DNA from: an uncultured virus (IMG/VR IMGVR_UViG_3300008262_000183)
Lineage: Duplodnaviria > Heunggongvirae > Uroviricota > Caudoviricetes
Virus record (IMG/VR): IMGVR_UViG_3300008262_000183
Strand: one strand, 5' to 3'
Length of the DNA: 64,000 nucleotides
Shown: positions 1 through 63,444 of the stretch, one piece after another
Numbering within the stretch: the first letter of the stretch is position 1
How the letters are laid out: each line of letters begins with the position of its first letter
Translations under genes and position numbers: made by a program
The notes under the pieces: generated by a model
Told to the model about the DNA's origin: nothing
Seen by the model: the letters and a program-made list of their open reading frames with translations, nothing else
Databases searched by the model: none

Positions 1-1077
1 AAGAAAAATTTTGTTGTGGTATCTGATGGTAATAAAATACCAATAATACCAAAAATATTGACAATACAAAGATGGGCTCAGATAATGAATACTTGGGAAT
101 TTTCAGATTCTGATGGTAATTTACAGGTTCCATTTGTTGGTGTGATTAGGAGACCGGATGTTCAACCAGGTACAAATCCATCAATTATTAGAACTATTCC
201 CGAAAGATTACAGTTTCATTATGCTTCTGTCGCAACATGGAACGGAACACAAATGGGGGCGGATATATATAAAATACCACAACCTGTACCAGTTGACATT
301 ACATTTGACGTGACGATAGTTTGTACTAAACTTAGAGAATTAAATAGATTTAATAAAATTGTACTTCAGAAATTTGCATCAAGACAGGCGTACACAATAG
401 TAAAGGGGCATTATGTACCAATTATTATGGATAAGGTTGAAGATAATTCTCCAATAGATCAATTGGATGGACGTAGATTTTATTCTCAAAACTATTCGTT
501 TACTATGTTAGGATTTTTAATTGATCAGGAAGAATTTGAGGTAAAACCCGCTGTTAGTAGATTTTTCCTATTAAATGAGTTTGCTAAAGGAACAAATTAT
601 CAAAAAAAATATATTAATAAAACAATTGATATAACGGTAGCAACATTTACTGCCGATGGTATGCAGACACAGTTTAGTGTTGGTGAAAGTATTGGTATTT
701 TGTTTAATGTTTCTATAAATGGTTTGTTGCAAGAGAGAGATATTGACTTTTTCCATATTGCTGGTACATCAAAAATAACATTCCCAACACCACCACTTGA
801 GGGGGATATAATTACTATAACTTATTATAAGGGAAGAAATAGCGTCTTTATAGATAACTACGGAAAACCGGTTCAAGTTGCAACAGAAAACTTTGTTTAT
901 AATGGGACAACTCTTGCTTTTACAACGATGAACGCAATTGATAGTGTTGTTTCGTTAGATATCAATGGTCTTGTTGAGGAAGAGGGTGTTGGGTTTAACG
1001 TTTCTGGTCAAGCGGAAATTACATTATCTTCAGCACCAGCATTAAACTCTAAAATAGGTGTGACTTACCTATATTAA
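1..1077 (+). CDS. Tail completion/terminator-like virion protein with C-terminal beta-rich repeats (5' partial)
   Basis: The frame is open from the window start. PQPVPVDITFDV and YSQNYSFTMLG resemble myovirus tail-completion proteins. It lies directly upstream of the sheath. Confidence 0.55.
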   Translation, partial: KKNFVVVSDGNKIPIIPKILTIQRWAQIMNTWEFSDSDGNLQVPFVGVIRRPDVQPGTNPSIIRTIPERLQFHYASVATWNGTQMGADIYKIPQPVPVDITFDVTIVCTKLRELNRFNKIVLQKFASRQAYTIVKGHYVPIIMDKVEDNSPIDQLDGRRFYSQNYSFTMLGFLIDQEEFEVKPAVSRFFLLNEFAKGTNYQKKYINKTIDITVATFTADGMQTQFSVGESIGILFNVSINGLLQERDIDFFHIAGTSKITFPTPPLEGDIITITYYKGRNSVFIDNYGKPVQVATENFVYNGTTLAFTTMNAIDSVVSLDINGLVEEEGVGFNVSGQAEITLSSAPALNSKIGVTYLY

Positions 1078-58117: not shown

Positions 58118-60320
58118 ATGAATCCATTTATTAAGGTTGAGTGGGAGGATGTTGTAGAAAACTTTACTCCAGAAAGAATTAAAAGAGTTAAAGCGTATTT
58201 CCAAAAGAAATACAATGCAACTAATGTACAAGTAATTACTAAAACATTATCTGGTGCAAAAGACACCAGATTAAAGACATTAGAAGTTACCGATAACATT
58301 CTAGATCCACAATATCAAAAAACATTAATGAAAGATTTTCTTTCAGAGAATAAAGTTGATGTTTCTTGGGAAATGATTGATCGTTTGGATAACAGAGTTA
58401 ATTCTGAAATTGATAAGATAAAACAGAATACCGTTAGATATAATAAATGGTTTATAAAAAAAGTTGAGTTTTCAAATTTCCTTTCATTTGGTAAGGATAA
58501 CACAATTAATTTTACTGAATTAGATGGCATAACAGTTATCGAATCAACACCAAGAAATTTTGGTGGTAAATCAACTTCATCCGTAGATTTATTAATGTTT
58601 TTGTTTTTTAATTCAACAACAAAAACAAAAACCAATATTGAAATTTTTAACAAGTTTACTGAAGATGATACTGTTTTAGTAAAGGGATATCTAACAATTG
58701 ATGGCGAAGATTATGTTATTGCCAGAACTCTTACTAGAAAGAAATCTAAATCGGGCGAATATAATGTTAAAAGTGATTTAGAGTTTTATAAAGATAACGG
58801 TGATGGAACATTAGAAAACTTAACCGGTGAACAAAGACGCGAAACCGAAACGTTTATTGCATCTGCTATTGGATCGGAAGAAGATTTCTTATCAACCATA
58901 TTGACTACTGGGTATAATCTAGAAGAATTGATCGAATCCAAACCAACCGCAAGAGGACAAATTCTTACTAAATTTTTAGGATTAGAAAGTCTTAAGCAGA
59001 AGGAAGAAATAGCAAAAGAGATATTCAATGATTGGTCTAAGAAGTTAGTTGGGAATACATATAATGTCGTTCAATTAGAATCTGATATTGAAAATTTTAA
59101 AGAAAGTATCACAGATTCAAATAACCAAATAAGTCAAAATGAAACCTTATTGGTTGAATATGGTAGTAAACTTAAATCATTAGAAGATCGTAGAGATTTG
59201 ATCTTAGGTCTTAGAAGTAACGATATTGATCAAGAGCTAATTAAAATTAATCCAGACTCATTACAAAAAGATATTGATGAGTTGGAGCAGAAAAAAAATG
59301 CTGCTAATTTAAATGCAAATGCGGTTGTTGTTGTTGAGCCATCAAAATATTATGATGAAGCTGAACATAAAGAACTTAGAAGTAAAATGTCAGAAATACA
59401 AGGGTTAGATGCCGTCTACAAGTATGAGAAAAGTGATAAAGAAAAATTGCTTAAACAACTAACCGATGGTACCATTTGTCCAACTTGTAAAAGAGCGTTA
59501 GATGATGTGGATCATAGTGATGAAATTGATGAGCTAAAAAAGCTTATCGAAGACATAACTAAAGAGATGATCTCTAATCAAGAAAAATTTGATCAGTTAA
59601 AAAATGAATCAAATACTTTTGATTTATTAAAAACAGAGTTTGAGACTTACGAAAGAAATAAACTTCGTAAAGAAAGATTTATATTAGAGTCTGAACAGAA
59701 ACAATTTGAAATAAATCAAATTAAGGATAAGATAACCCGCTATGAAAATAGTAGAAAAAAACTAGAAGAAAATCAAAAGATTGATGCCGAACTAATAACC
59801 CTCAGAACCAGAATTGAGACAGTTAATGGTGATATTAGAGTATCAAACACATTGATTGAAAGAAATAAGAATAACATTACTTCAATGCAAGAAAAGATTT
59901 AATCAGGAACTACATCGTTTGCTTATTGATAGTTGTTATTTTATTTTGGAATTAAACATTAATGAAAAAAATGAAGTTGAGTTTATTATGATTGATTCGG
60001 ATACCAGGGTTGTCAAACCGCTCACCGCTGGTTCAGGTTACGAAAGAACCATATCATCTTTAGCATTAAGATCTGTTTTAACTAAGATATCTTCATTACC
60101 AAAACCAAATATTGTTGTTATGGATGAGGTGTTTGGTAAAATTGCTGATGAGAATTTAGAAATGGTTGGTGAATTCTTCAAAAAGATTAAGAATTACTTT
60201 GAACATATTCTTGTCATTTCACACAATCCGTTAATCAGGAATTGGTCTGATAATATCATAATGATTAAAAAAGAAGATAATGTATCTTCAATTGACTACA
60301 TCACAACAGGTATTAGTTAA
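58118..60320 (+). pseudogene. SbcC/Rad50/gp46-like ATPase, split near 59900
   Basis: NFLSFG, Walker A NFGGKST and Zn-hook CPTC lie in 58118..59902. Signature GSGYE, Walker B VVMDE and ISH lie in the +1 frame ending at 60320. Confidence 0.8.
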
Positions 60321-60344
60321 TTTTTTTTATTAAAATATTTTAGC

Positions 60345-60352
60345 TATATTTG
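60345..60352 (+). promoter_or_regulatory. Bacteroidota-type -7 promoter element
   Basis: TATATTTG matches TAnnTTTG, 20 nt upstream of clpP. Confidence 0.5.
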
Positions 60353-60372
60353 TTATAGATAAAACAAATAAT

Positions 60373-61047
60373 ATGACCCAGAAGGATTTAAGAAGTTTTG
60401 ATCTTTACGCAAAAGATCGTGGCATCAGCTCATCAAACTTACATTATTTTAATAAAAATATTGAAAGTAGCTTAACACCATATATTTTAGAGGAAAGACA
60501 GTTAAATGTTACTGCTATGGATGTTTTTTCTAGATTAATGATGGAAAGAATTATTTGGGTAGCTGGTGAAGTAAATGACCACATGTCGACAATAGTTCAA
60601 GCGCAATTAATGTTCTTGGATAGTTTAGATAATAATGATATTACGATGCATATTGACAGTCCAGGTGGCTCTGTCAAATCTGGGTTATCTATGGTTGATG
60701 TTATGGAATACATTAATTCAGATATTAGAACAATCAACACCGGAATGGCTGCCTCTATGGGCTCGATTCTTTTGGGTGCAGGTACAAAAGGTAAGAGAGG
60801 TTCACTCAGATTTTCACGCACAATGTTGCATCAATCTAGTGGTGGATTTCGCGGGAATATCCAAGATGCAAAAATTGATATGATTGAGTGGGAAAAACTC
60901 AATAATTTACTTTTCGAATTATTGGGCGGCTATTGTGGTAAAGATGCTAAACAAGTTATGCAAGATGCGTCTAGAGATTTATGGCTATCTGCTGAAGATG
61001 CATTAGAATACGGTATTATTGACGAGATTGTCAAAAAGAAAAAATAA
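60373..61047 (+). CDS. clpP: ATP-dependent Clp protease proteolytic subunit
   Basis: DVFSRL..ERII, DSPGG, GMAASMG (Ser), MLHQ (His) and RDLWLSA..A.EYGIID (Asp). Confidence 0.95.
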   Translation: MTQKDLRSFDLYAKDRGISSSNLHYFNKNIESSLTPYILEERQLNVTAMDVFSRLMMERIIWVAGEVNDHMSTIVQAQLMFLDSLDNNDITMHIDSPGGSVKSGLSMVDVMEYINSDIRTINTGMAASMGSILLGAGTKGKRGSLRFSRTMLHQSSGGFRGNIQDAKIDMIEWEKLNNLLFELLGGYCGKDAKQVMQDASRDLWLSAEDALEYGIIDEIVKKKK

Positions 61048-61067
61048 TTTTTGCTTTTTTTAGATTT

Positions 61068-61099
61068 AAAGAGGGAAGTTTTTGACTTCCCTTTTTTTT
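61068..61099 (+). terminator. Intrinsic terminator after clpP
   Basis: AAAGAGGGAAGTT-TTT-GACTTCCCTTTTTTTT. Confidence 0.8.
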
Positions 61100-61122
61100 A
61101 TCTTTTCCTTATACTTATTATT

Positions 61123-61195
61123 AGACCTTGTGGTTGAATCGGAAGTGTCCTTGTGGCATTTGAGTTGGAATTGATACCAACGAATTCGGGTTCAA
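61123..61195 (+). ncRNA. Candidate structured 5' leader RNA
   Basis: TTGAATCGGAA/TTCGGGTTCAA encloses AGTGTC/GGCATT and GTTGG/CCAAC. Its 5' end is complementary to 62028-62040. Confidence 0.55.
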
Positions 61196-61216
61196 ATACA
61201 AAAAAATATAAGGAAA

Positions 61217-62020
61217 ATGAACAGAAGAATTTCAGTTAACACTGGTCTTGCTGTACCACAATCTTTCATTACCAAAGGTAAACAAAGATTAAAACAGCAC
61301 ATAGACACCGTATATCTTAACAACGGTGATGAGTTCGAAATCGAGCTTTACAATCCCACACAAAATAAAGTTTTAGCAAAAATCGAATTGAATGGTAATT
61401 CAATAGGGTCTGGTATTATTCTTCGCCCAGGTGAAAGAGTATTCTTAGAAAGATATTTGAATGAAGCCAAAAAGTTTTTGTTTGAAACATATAATGTAAA
61501 TGGGAATAATGAGGAAGTACAAAGAGCTATCGCTGAAAATGGTGATGTTACCGTTAAATTTTACAACGAAACAACACCAACCTATGGAACATACGGATCA
61601 GGTAGTAGCACGTTAACAATTAATAACCCAAATATAGGCTGGACTACAACAACAGGTACACCTTATTATGGAAATATGTTCACAACGACGTCTACTAACA
61701 ACGTAAATACATTTTATAATACGTCATTAACAAGTGGAACGTTCAGCACTTCTAACACCCTTCTTAAATCAAATTCAACAAACACAATAAGAAGTGTTGA
61801 GACAGGTAGGGTTGAAAAGGGATCAAGTTCGGATCAATCATTTACATATGATAGTTCGTCATTTTATACCCACCCATTTCATACAAATTGGTGGAAATTA
61901 AAACCACAGTCTACTAAGCCATTAGTTGCTGAGGATTTAGCCGTTTATTGCACAGAGTGTGGCGCAAAACGTAAAAAAGATAATCATAAGTTCTGTCCAC
62001 ACTGCGGAACAAAATACTAA
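61217..62020 (+). CDS. Protein with a beta-sandwich N-domain, Thr/Ser-rich linker and C-terminal zinc ribbon
   Basis: EFEIELYNPT...LRPGERVFLERY and C-terminal YCTECG...KFCPHCG. Confidence 0.75.
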   Translation: MNRRISVNTGLAVPQSFITKGKQRLKQHIDTVYLNNGDEFEIELYNPTQNKVLAKIELNGNSIGSGIILRPGERVFLERYLNEAKKFLFETYNVNGNNEEVQRAIAENGDVTVKFYNETTPTYGTYGSGSSTLTINNPNIGWTTTTGTPYYGNMFTTTSTNNVNTFYNTSLTSGTFSTSNTLLKSNSTNTIRSVETGRVEKGSSSDQSFTYDSSSFYTHPFHTNWWKLKPQSTKPLVAEDLAVYCTECGAKRKKDNHKFCPHCGTKY

Positions 62021-62046
62021 ATAAACTAATCACAAGGTCTTGTCTT

Positions 62047-62067
62047 GAGGTCGCATTTTGCGACCTC
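62047..62067 (+). terminator. Perfect 9-bp hairpin (terminator or processing site)
   Basis: GAGGTCGCA-TTT-TGCGACCTC with a weak U-tail. Confidence 0.6.
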
Positions 62068-62093
62068 TTGATATTTATAGGAAAACCAATTTT

Positions 62094-62495
62094 ATGAAAC
62101 TTCAAACAAGTAATAATAAAACGAACATATTAATCATTATAATTGGTATTATGGCTGCATACAATATTTTGCAAACCAAAGGTATAAAAACCGATGTATC
62201 AGCATATAACAAAAAAATTGATTTAATACAAAAAGAAATCGATTCTGTACAGGTTTTAAATAAACAGTTAAACATACAGATCGCAAATATCGACACAGAA
62301 ATTGATAAAGTTGATGGCGATATTGGTAGAGTAACAAAAAACATAACAATTATTAAAAATCAAACAAATGAAAAAATTGATGCTGTTAATGAGTTTACTT
62401 TTAGTGACCTCGCTAAGTTTTTCTCAGACCGTTATGACGCAAGAGAAGACAGTAGTGCAGGACACAATAGTACCCCTCAAAACCCAAATCGCTAA
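62094..62495 (+). CDS. N-terminally anchored coiled-coil membrane protein (i-spanin-like)
   Basis: ILIIIIGIMAAY transmembrane segment followed by heptads. ATG 62094 follows TATTTAT. Confidence 0.55.
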   Translation: MKLQTSNNKTNILIIIIGIMAAYNILQTKGIKTDVSAYNKKIDLIQKEIDSVQVLNKQLNIQIANIDTEIDKVDGDIGRVTKNITIIKNQTNEKIDAVNEFTFSDLAKFFSDRYDAREDSSAGHNSTPQNPNR

Positions 62496-62796
62496 ATTAG
62501 TCATAAAAGATTTGATCAGGGGTGATGGTGCCATTGTCGAGGTTAAAGAATTAAACAAAGTGATTGGATTAAAAGACGAACAAATCAGATTGTTTAAAGA
62601 AAAAGACCTTTTAAAAGATCAAAAAATATCAAACTTGGAGGTAATCATTTCTAAAAAAGATGAGCAATTTTCTTTAGAAAGAGAAAAATCTGAAAAGTTA
62701 TATAAAGAATTAAAGGGACAAAGAACTAAAACCTTTTTATATAAAGTTGGAACATTTGTTGGGCTACTTGCCACATCAGTATTACTTGTTAAATAA
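62368..62796 (+). CDS. Secreted coiled-coil protein with a C-terminal membrane anchor (spanin partner-like)
   Basis: Signal peptide MKKLMLLMSLLLVTSLSFS-Q and C-terminal VGTFVGLLATSVLLV. It overlaps the upstream gene by 128 nt. Confidence 0.6.
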   Translation: MKKLMLLMSLLLVTSLSFSQTVMTQEKTVVQDTIVPLKTQIAKLVIKDLIRGDGAIVEVKELNKVIGLKDEQIRLFKEKDLLKDQKISNLEVIISKKDEQFSLEREKSEKLYKELKGQRTKTFLYKVGTFVGLLATSVLLVK

Positions 62797-63444
62797 ATGA
62801 AAAAACACATCACCCCACCCAATATTGCCCTATTAGTACTAGTTTTATTATTAATATTATCAGTATTAAATCCATGGGGAATAATACCCAATAGAGTAAC
62901 AAACGTTCCTGTCTATGTGGTTGATTCTATACCATATCCACAGCACGATACAATACCTTTTGAAGTCGAGGTTGAGGTTGAAGTACCCGTAGAAGTTGAA
63001 GTACCATATACGGTTCATGATACCATATTAACCCCGGTGGATACTATGGCGATATTAAAAGATTTTTACACAAAAAATATTTCAAAAGAAGAATTAAAAC
63101 TACCTAATAATCAAGGTGTTATAAGCTTGAGTCAAACTATTACCGAGAACAAAGTAGTGTCAACAGAGTTTAATGCTAAAATAACCCCTAAAGTCCAAAA
63201 GGATACCATTTTATTGCCTGAGCCAAAGAAAACTCAACTTTATTTTGGCGTTGTTGGGGGTGTGTCTAAACCAGATTTTATTTCAAATGTTGGTGCTGGG
63301 TTATTACTTAAGACAAAAGAGGATAAAATATATAAATTTACAATTGGTGCCGCAAATAGATTAACCAGTGATATTAATGGTACATTCCATCCATACATGG
63401 AAGGTGGGGTGTTTTGGAAAATCAAAGCCAAAAAAAGAAACTAG
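62797..63444 (+). CDS. Membrane-anchored periplasmic protein with C-terminal beta strands
   Basis: IALLVLVLLLILSVL transmembrane segment, VEVEVPV stretch and terminal GGVFWKI. Confidence 0.6.
   Translation: MKKHITPPNIALLVLVLLLILSVLNPWGIIPNRVTNVPVYVVDSIPYPQHDTIPFEVEVEVEVPVEVEVPYTVHDTILTPVDTMAILKDFYTKNISKEELKLPNNQGVISLSQTITENKVVSTEFNAKITPKVQKDTILLPEPKKTQLYFGVVGGVSKPDFISNVGAGLLLKTKEDKIYKFTIGAANRLTSDINGTFHPYMEGGVFWKIKAKKRN

Follow-up and report, generated by a model that had tools for sequence, protein, structure and literature searches.

We analysed a 64,000-nucleotide stretch of DNA (the window, along which all positions are counted) from an uncultured virus of the Caudoviricetes (IMG/VR record IMGVR_UViG_3300008262_000183), in which one gene, encoding a zinc-ribbon protein of 267 amino acids (aa), lies between two complementary segments of intergenic DNA, one on either side. 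We find that the helix that these two arms can form, which we call P1, is conserved and covaries in about 120 distinct relatives, and that it is specific to the plus-strand RNA. We put at roughly 0.6 the probability that P1 buries the 5' end of the message beside its terminator and protects the complete mRNA, making both its lifetime and the yield of protein depend on the transcript being whole.

In the window, AGACCTTGTGGTT (61123-61135) is complementary to AATCACAAGGTCT (62028-62040) through 12 Watson-Crick pairs and one G·U pair (G61133 with T62030), and counting a second G·U pair (G61136 with T62027) brings P1 to 14 base pairs (bp; Table 1). Reading both arms in the sequence thus confirmed the 13-bp match with one G-U pair that a preliminary description of this DNA had put forward, and its account of the surroundings was equally accurate: a TACTTAT box is found at 61112-61118, 4 nucleotides (nt) before the 5' arm, and 7 nt separate the stop codon (62018-62020) from the 13-nt 3' arm, which stands ahead of a 9-bp hairpin that starts 6 nt past P1. 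The P1 duplex is worth -20.2 kcal/mol, and barring the 3' arm from pairing costs the window transcript 13.2 kcal/mol of ensemble energy.

Taken by itself, the pairing in the window is not beyond chance. This AT-rich stretch holds 121 helices of at least 12 bp (with at most one G·U pair and 150-3000 nt between the arms), where 30 first-order Markov simulations gave 104.6 on average, and the arm motif occurs in it 23 times, with up to three mismatches allowed, where 18 occurrences are expected. When other genes of the same design were sought among them, the two longest other long-range helices (16541/16964 and 38171/39051) proved to lie inside open reading frames (ORFs); what distinguishes P1 is that its two arms are intergenic and flank a single gene. 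Because the pairing is not significant in a single window, a comparison with relatives was needed, and significance comes from that comparison only. Complementarity by chance and without function, which the abundance of similar helices would allow, is refuted by conservation with compensatory change, and we consider its probability negligible.

The protein has numerous relatives, on contigs of up to 435 kb, and a first scan for them gave 51 loci. In profile scans a relative was encoded in 514 of 576 viral-contig stretches and in 450 of 598 metagenome-contig stretches, the best 80 per scan being analysed. The resulting set comprises 211 loci, 198 of which have both flanks, giving 127 distinct flank pairs. 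An exact CCTTGT upstream together with an exact ACAAGG downstream is present in 115 of these. Nine of the remaining 12 have a one-base variant of the core or a displaced or more distant copy of the 3' core, several of the variants being transitions that retain a wobble pair; one (L049) is without both cores, and for two (L088 and L161) ORF tracing ended early. In 119 distinct loci from large-phage contigs P1 measures 9-17 bp, most often 13. Its 3' arm begins 4-17 nt past the stop codon in 116 of them and 39-57 nt past it in the other three, and a terminator-like hairpin with a T run follows 0-12 nt past the 3' arm in 118, the terminator sequences themselves varying between lineages. Where the protein has a C-terminal extension of about 70 aa (L037, L038 and L046), the 3' arm comes after the new stop codon. 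The comparison of homologues that the preliminary description had suggested was run, and the flanks are complementary in about 120 distinct loci. Among the loci compared, the element is confined to the main clade of the family, found mostly in fresh and river water by run labels.

The base pairs of P1, which we number from the first C of CCTTGT, were compared in 125 distinct loci. In the 5' arm the core, positions -1 to +5, never varies. At position -2, 69 loci have G-C and 44 have A-T; position -3 is A-T in 53 and T-A in 23, and position -4 is G-C in 21, A-T in 25 and T-A in 20. On the other side of the core, position 6 is G-C in 98 loci and T-A in 20, and position 7 is G·T in 82, A-T in 23 and G-C in 6. 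On a quick tree built from coding columns only, and with recombination possible, pairs -2 and -3 each switched Watson-Crick type at least six times and pair 6 at least twice.

P1 was also recovered blind. RNAalifold was given 46 diverse full-length sequences, a subset of a 123-row alignment chosen for distinct helix columns and a length of at most 990 nt, extending 12 nt past each arm and occupying 1211 columns. It paired columns 10-20 with 1192-1202, that is P1, across about 1,180 columns, and also predicted three helices of the leader (P2-P4, described below); elsewhere it gave only nine scattered pairs. Compensatory changes are seen in 19 of its 39 pairs. Of the 1380 cells that make up the 30 pairs of P1-P4, 97.4% are paired, compared with 84.6 ± 0.6% in column shuffles, and none of 500 shuffles reached the observed pairing on any of five measures; 18 of the 30 pairs have changes on both sides, and sliding the partner by 1-3 columns leaves only 33-44% paired. 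For P1 alone the figures are 95.5% and 87.0%, again with 0 of 500 shuffles reaching it, and a separate script agrees helix by helix.

The mismatches tell the strand. P1-P4 contain 138 G·U or U·G cells and 9 A·C or C·A cells (31 and 7 in P1, 107 and 2 in P2-P4), and this large excess of G·U indicates plus-strand RNA rather than a repeat in DNA. On the opposite strand, and in duplex DNA, such cells would be mismatches. An inverted DNA repeat might correspond to mobile cassette ends, bound a segment that inverts or serve as a pair of operators for a DNA-binding protein. Compensation between two arms would also be expected of terminal repeats and of paired binding sites for a protein, and the gene does occur in several genomic contexts. 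We nevertheless regard a DNA-level explanation as very improbable, because of the strand bias, the extension of conservation beyond the arm into a -10-like box, the constant orientation (the 5' core is upstream of the gene in 124 of 125 distinct loci, and none has an inverted gene between the arms) and the lack of an adjacent recombinase. Indeed, the commonest state of position 7, G·T, would be a C·A mismatch on the other strand. Furthermore, contigs of four runs contain no strand-changing joint, and P1 is continuous with the RNA helices P2-P4.

When 20 diverse transcripts of 914-1013 nt were folded, the minimum-energy structure of 19 also contained P1, with 9 or more of its 12 pairs, and its mean pair probability in these 19 is 0.75-0.99. 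Covariation, the G·U bias, RNAalifold and thermodynamics thus strongly support what had at first been inferred from one sequence, namely that the flanks of this monocistronic message pair at the level of RNA.

Structured leader and transcript ends

P1 is only one part of the element; its larger part, overlooked in the preliminary description, is a leader (61123-61216) with a conserved fold of about 90 nt that contains three helices, P2-P4, besides P1. In the 46-sequence alignment compensatory changes occur in eight of nine pairs of P2 (for P3 and P4 see Table 1). P1 adjoins P2 with 0-1 nt between them, and the coding region therefore forms one large loop that leaves and re-enters a single stacked junction. 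A covariance model of the leader (R1) has a single match in the window, at 61123-61212 (96.6 bits, E = 6.9e-20), and the leader was found once in the nearest record, of 118 kb. A pattern scan matched at least 119 stretches; 80 were examined and contained nine true leaders, all nine preceding a gene of the zinc-ribbon family. Conservation is higher in the leader than in the protein: identity between the proteins drops to 45-53%, whereas ACCTTGT, TTGAGTTGG and CCAAC-GAA vary little or not at all. The unpaired bases of the junction are conserved as well. Searching positions 60000-63000 against Rfam 15 (E ≤ 1) returned no family at or near its gathering score, the only rows being two weak and unrelated ones, the first with 25.4 bits (gathering score 60) and the second, which covers the terminator of the upstream ClpP gene, with 21.4 bits (gathering score 58.7). 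The leader could be filed as a new RNA family.

Helices that bring together distant parts of a transcript are known in other settings. The 3' untranslated region (UTR) of Staphylococcus aureus icaR pairs with the 5' UTR, masks the Shine-Dalgarno (SD) sequence and recruits RNase III, and rRNA processing stalks are long-range duplexes around a functional RNA, cut by RNase III and longer than P1. The phage transcript resembles the former in that a 3' region pairs with a 5' region, and the latter in that a helix encloses a functional RNA. It is conceivable that P1 stacked on P2 is cut by an RNase III-type enzyme, which would trim both ends or start decay; our reading of the structure gives about 22-24 bp for P1 and P2 if stacked, or about two helical turns. 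We think this quite unlikely, however, since P1 alone has 9-17 bp, which is short for RNase III, and the stack is broken by the junction.

Promoter-like and terminator-like signals bracket both arms. A hexamer of the TATAnT type is conserved upstream of the 5' arm in 117 distinct loci, and in 79 of these P1 begins to pair after an interval of 6-8 nt; with this spacing, P1 would begin at or next to the first transcribed nucleotide. Many loci have TTTACA, 17 nt and then TATACT or TATATT upstream of the arm, and a -35-like hexamer is found in 73 of the 117. The 3' end of the transcript is likewise predicted, from the terminator-like sequence. Parts of 61050-62120 are represented in contigs of 19 RNA-labelled metatranscriptome runs (shares 0.09-0.24), and in the four such runs that were compared the contigs are of relatives, with 85-99% likeness; these data are contigs and carry no information on starts, ends or strand, and parts that they leave uncovered are uninformative. 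The coverage in 19 runs is suggestive of common expression, DNA carry-over being possible.

Two further features were noted in the leader region. A second copy of CCTTGTG, at 61149-61155, lies inside the P3 hairpin of the window phage; it is probably incidental, as only 20 of 115 loci have two copies. Positions 61103-61119 (TTTTCCTTATACTTATT, the -10-like region) are 88% complementary over 17 nt to 61201-61217 (AAAAAATATAAGGAAAA, the SD and start region). This pairing, which by eye is weaker in relatives with CATTATA instead of CCTTATA, could matter only in transcripts that read through from ClpP.

Table 1. Features of the zinc-ribbon gene unit and its upstream boundary in the window
Feature	Position	Strand	Remarks
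Intrinsic terminator of the upstream ClpP gene	61068-61096	+	13-pair stem, then T run
-10-like hexamer TATACT (putative promoter element)	61110-61115	+	predicted start ~61123
P1 5' arm, AGACCTTGTGGTTG	61123-61136	+	core ACCTTGT invariant in relatives
Leader domain closed by P2	61135-61194	+	P2: 61135-61144 with 61185-61194
Hairpin P3	61145-61149 with 61155-61159	+	compensatory changes in 5/5 pairs
Hairpin P4	61164-61168 with 61177-61181	+	compensatory changes in 2/5 pairs
A-rich linker with SD-like AAGGA (61210-61214)	61195-61216	+	TAAGG nearly invariant in relatives
Coding sequence, 267 aa	61217-62020	+	beta-sandwich domain, disordered Ser/Thr/Asn-rich linker, C-terminal zinc ribbon
P1 3' arm, TAATCACAAGGTCT	62027-62040	+	pairs with the 5' arm; conserved, covarying
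Intrinsic terminator of the unit	62047-62076	+	9-pair hairpin 62047-62067, then TTGATATTTA (T-rich tail)

The encoded protein and its surroundings

The zinc-ribbon gene is flanked by two terminators, one on each side. Since the upstream one ends the ClpP gene (ORF 60373-61047), the zinc-ribbon ORF forms a unit of its own, insulated on its 5' side. Its neighbours encode the ClpP protease, an SbcC-like ATPase and unnamed proteins. Domain and PHROG annotation of the adjoining genes revealed no recombinase, transposase or reverse transcriptase, which bears out the earlier remark that neither a recombinase nor a reverse transcriptase is adjacent. The SbcC-like ATPase, at 58118-60320, appears divided between two ORFs that overlap and are read in different frames: the first, 58118-59902 (594 aa), matches phrog_77, SbcC-like, and the second, 59856-60320 (154 aa), has weak matches to SbcC_Walker_B and SMC_N. 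Possible reasons are a split gene, a frameshift and a fault in the assembly.

The zinc ribbon at the C terminus of the protein is basic, rich in Lys and Arg, and matches Pfam Zn_Ribbon_1 (PF13240) with E = 2.1e-5 and 24.6 bits against a gathering cut-off of 25. Its four putative zinc ligands (C245, C248, C260 and C263) are invariant in the 36 homologues aligned. In the predicted structure, which has a mean predicted local distance difference test score of 68.5, a beta-sandwich is formed by residues ~10-120 plus strands at 194-230, and the disordered linker spans residues 123-190. The fold has no match in the PDB at E ≤ 0.001 and the protein none among PHROGs, and its Atlas clusters are all labelled 'hypothetical protein'. 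It does match predicted structures of viral proteins, likewise uncharacterised, from a marine phage (E = 5.4e-19) and from giant viruses, nudiviruses and iridoviruses (E down to 7.7e-10). From these predicted structures, the combination of a beta-sandwich with a zinc-binding tail seems to be widespread in large DNA viruses of prokaryotes and eukaryotes. The matches in eukaryotic viruses also include nimaviruses, and some of the matched proteins are named immediate-early proteins. The extension in homologues L037, L038 and L046 (341 or 330 aa) adds to the zinc ribbon a further domain, of about 70 aa, whose best viral structural match is a protein named for a SHOCT domain.

It is possible, if unlikely, that a factor of phage or host origin binds the P1/P2 junction together with the unpaired leader segments and so governs translation or decay, the encoded basic protein being a candidate that would regulate its own synthesis. 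The leader is more conserved than the protein, its unpaired junction bases are conserved, among the loci examined it occurs only ahead of the zinc-ribbon gene, and the protein ends in a ribbon rich in Lys and Arg. RNA binding by the protein is conjecture, however, for a fold that matches only uncharacterised viral proteins, and such binding would be compatible with protection of the message by end pairing rather than exclusive of it.

End closure weighed against other readings

Paired 5' ends protect bacterial mRNAs. If transcription starts at about 61123, P1 would pair the 5'-terminal nucleotides of the message and clamp its 5' end next to the terminator hairpin, and both ends would be closed in the complete transcript only. 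Such closure would act after transcription, denying access to nucleases that depend on an open 5' end or on a cleavage site in the leader, and it would also limit decay from the 3' side; by analogy with the hbs mRNA of Bacillus subtilis, a limit on nuclease entry at the 5' end, in the leader and on the 3' side is what would be expected. The lifetime of the mRNA and the yield of protein would in this way be tied to the wholeness of the transcript. A protein or the ribosome may, in addition, read the P1/P2 junction, as the conserved unpaired parts of the leader and the invariant core of the helix suggest.

A number of observations weigh against protection by end closure, or against the evidence brought for it. 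Each ribosome that terminates, 4-17 nt short of the 3' arm, should open P1 for a moment, which speaks for a dynamic rather than a purely static role of the helix. A requirement for pairing alone leaves the invariant 7-nt core unexplained. The structure tested against shuffles was taken from the same alignment, and the register search picks the best-scoring partner, both of which lean towards pairing. One of the 20 folded transcripts, L210, fails to form P1 (0 of 12 pairs, probability 0.18). As to the 5' end, the start near 61123 is itself predicted from a promoter-like motif only; 44 of the 117 loci are without a -35-like hexamer, and a sigma-70 scan of the window found no promoter directly upstream of the arm and no -35 element that passed. 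One RNA-library contig extends 46 nt upstream of the arm, and another, of 3.9 kb, covers both ClpP and the zinc-ribbon gene; these contigs could stem from read-through RNA or from contaminating DNA.

The distribution of the element is a further point on this side. A distant clade (L216-L221), whose first member (L049/L216) encodes a protein 38% identical to that of the window, is without P1, and so are the homologues in the records Lak-A1, Lak-B4, Lak-C1 and two other huge-phage records (43-49% identity over parts of the protein). Model R1 has no match in L216-L221 or in these five huge-phage loci. Since distant homologues have neither P1 nor a match to the leader model, the element is not essential to the gene.

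The flanks of the distant homologues offer only AT-rich duplexes at inconsistent positions. An 11-bp duplex in L049/L216 was considered as an equivalent of P1 and rejected, as it is lost in relatives 86% identical. By eye, L216-L219 retain a hairpin like P4 (GAGT...ACTC) about 60-100 nt before the start codon, and they also have a box, ACCTTT, that might pair locally with an AAAGGA some 40 nt further on. These motifs hint that CCUU:AAGG pairing may be older than its long-range form. In Lak-A1 (L222) and Lak-C1 (L224), near locus position 600, an in-frame TAG stands two codons past the likely start of the homologous ORF when read with translation table 11. Reassignment of a stop codon has been reported for Lak phages and would fit this observation.

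The invariance of the core could have another origin. The core of the 5' arm, CCUUGU(G), is anti-SD-like and could pair with the ribosome-binding site (RBS; UAUAAGG) in unfinished or 3'-truncated transcripts. The 3' arm, whose CACAAGG is an SD mimic, would form the stronger helix with it and free the RBS, so that only complete messages would be translated. We consider this reading, the main rival of end protection, possible but doubtful. A 6-bp helix between arm and SD is available in all 68 distinct combinations of the two, and a seventh pair in 48, with T6 always opposite A (13 of 13), a result that none of 2000 shuffles reached; this covariation, however, is that of one column, and the statistics ignore kinship. 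The arm:SD duplex is worth -6.8 kcal/mol, against -20.2 for P1, and is present in the minimum-energy fold of 7 of 20 truncated leaders. A probability of CCUU:AAGG pairing above 0.2 is predicted in 63 of 118 truncated leaders, but one above 0.5 in only 11, and it was on account of this low predicted occupancy that sequestration of the SD, considered as the main mechanism, was demoted to a rival. With the arm withdrawn, the SD of the 118 leaders becomes only slightly more accessible on average (unpaired probability 0.67 instead of 0.56), and in the window's own leader SD accessibility falls, from 0.75 to 0.29. In many lineages, moreover, the free arm is predicted to pair with UACAA beside P2 instead. 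In favour of RBS pairing, a three-way constraint (16S rRNA with SD, SD with arm, arm with 3' arm) would explain the invariant core, and the idea is in line with the abstract of a preprint on long-range anti-SD-like sequences in B. subtilis (PMC12697547).

More tentatively, the two functions could be combined in a sensor of completeness. The 5' CCUUGU would silence the RBS until the SD mimic of the 3' UTR captures it, and the same helix would clamp the ends and hold the stop codon near the start, to be opened by terminating ribosomes. Such a device would couple translation, ribosome recycling and decay, and might be read by the zinc-ribbon protein. We would not give this scheme more than a modest chance.

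Relation to known end-pairing messages

To our knowledge, end-to-end pairing of mRNA in bacteria is known from very few cases (hbs, and hok with its relatives), mostly from bench work in one species. The phage family belongs to this known kind, the long-range interaction between 5' and 3' UTRs. The preliminary description had called it an undescribed system; this does not hold for the kind, which is in print for hbs (PMC5737220) and for the tac/fbi pairing of hok (PMC9841398), but it does hold for the phage family and its leader fold, which match nothing in Rfam. The further suggestions of that description, namely circularisation, processing and binding of the RNA by its own protein, are conjecture.

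In B. subtilis, the published account of the hbs mRNA describes a 14-nt interaction of about -19 kcal/mol between the leader and a segment just upstream of the terminator. This interaction restrains cleavage of the leader; its loss speeds decay of the primary transcripts, and compensatory mutants restore wild-type levels (Braun, Durand and Condon 2017, PMC5737220). The likeness to P1 is close: a helix of about 14 bp, and of similar energy (-20.2 kcal/mol here), joins the 5' UTR to a pre-terminator segment in a short monocistronic message with a highly structured leader. In the phage family, too, the UTRs are complementary, the 3' segment lies ahead of the terminator, and compensatory changes, here natural ones, are found. 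In that account, however, pairing was validated at the bench by compensatory mutations, whereas in the phage family it is supported by natural covariation. The 5' segment of hbs is described as lying inside the leader, downstream of two hairpins, and overlapping an RNase Y site; the 5' arm in the phages is the very start of the predicted transcript and adjoins a three-helix domain. The two systems have no sequence relationship, and the context here is that of a phage, for which an effect on decay would be expected by analogy.

The hok mRNA of the hok/Sok system (plasmid R1) is similar in that its tac/fbi 5'-3' interaction closes and stabilises the full-length mRNA, and in that its 5' element is able to switch partners (PMC9841398). 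As presented there, hok encodes a small toxin and is controlled by an antisense RNA, and its closed form is inert, with the SD sequestered until 3' trimming activates the message (PMC9841398). In contrast, the product of the phage ORF is not a small toxic peptide but a beta-sandwich and zinc-ribbon protein of 267 aa, and folding predicts that closure leaves the SD largely accessible (mean unpaired probability 0.67 in 118 leaders); the RBS pairing considered above would be the reverse of hok logic. The AapA1 mRNA of Helicobacter pylori is a related type I toxin message.

According to the preprint cited above (Gill et al. 2025, PMC12697547), anti-SD-like sequences hundreds of nt away can pair with the RBS in B. 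subtilis, where they promote decay and block initiation. The phage arm is alike in being a distant pyrimidine-rich element of the CCUU type that can pair with the RBS and could affect decay and initiation. The elements described there are inhibitory and depleted from genes, whereas the phage element is invariant and has a stronger, dedicated partner in the 3' UTR. A search of the literature brought up no 5'/3' interaction in a phage mRNA, which is weak evidence, because the spelling "5' UTR" may escape the search terms.

What is new in the phage family is the pairing at the predicted start of the transcript, its stacking on a new three-helix leader and its support by natural covariation. In very large uncultivated phages the element thus provides a well-supported example of something rare, end-to-end closure of a bacterial-type mRNA, and among the long-range mRNA helices of prokaryotic viruses P1, which spans about 900 nt, is one of those with the best phylogenetic support. 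With about 90 nt of leader and 14 nt of 3' arm, it is a compact and portable system in which to study end closure in decay, in translation and in the quality control of incomplete transcripts, with relevance both to how phages express their genes and to how stable messages might be designed. An unstudied protein, conserved across very large phages and with relatives in Lak megaphages, is moreover singled out as one whose dosage seems to be controlled with unusual care.

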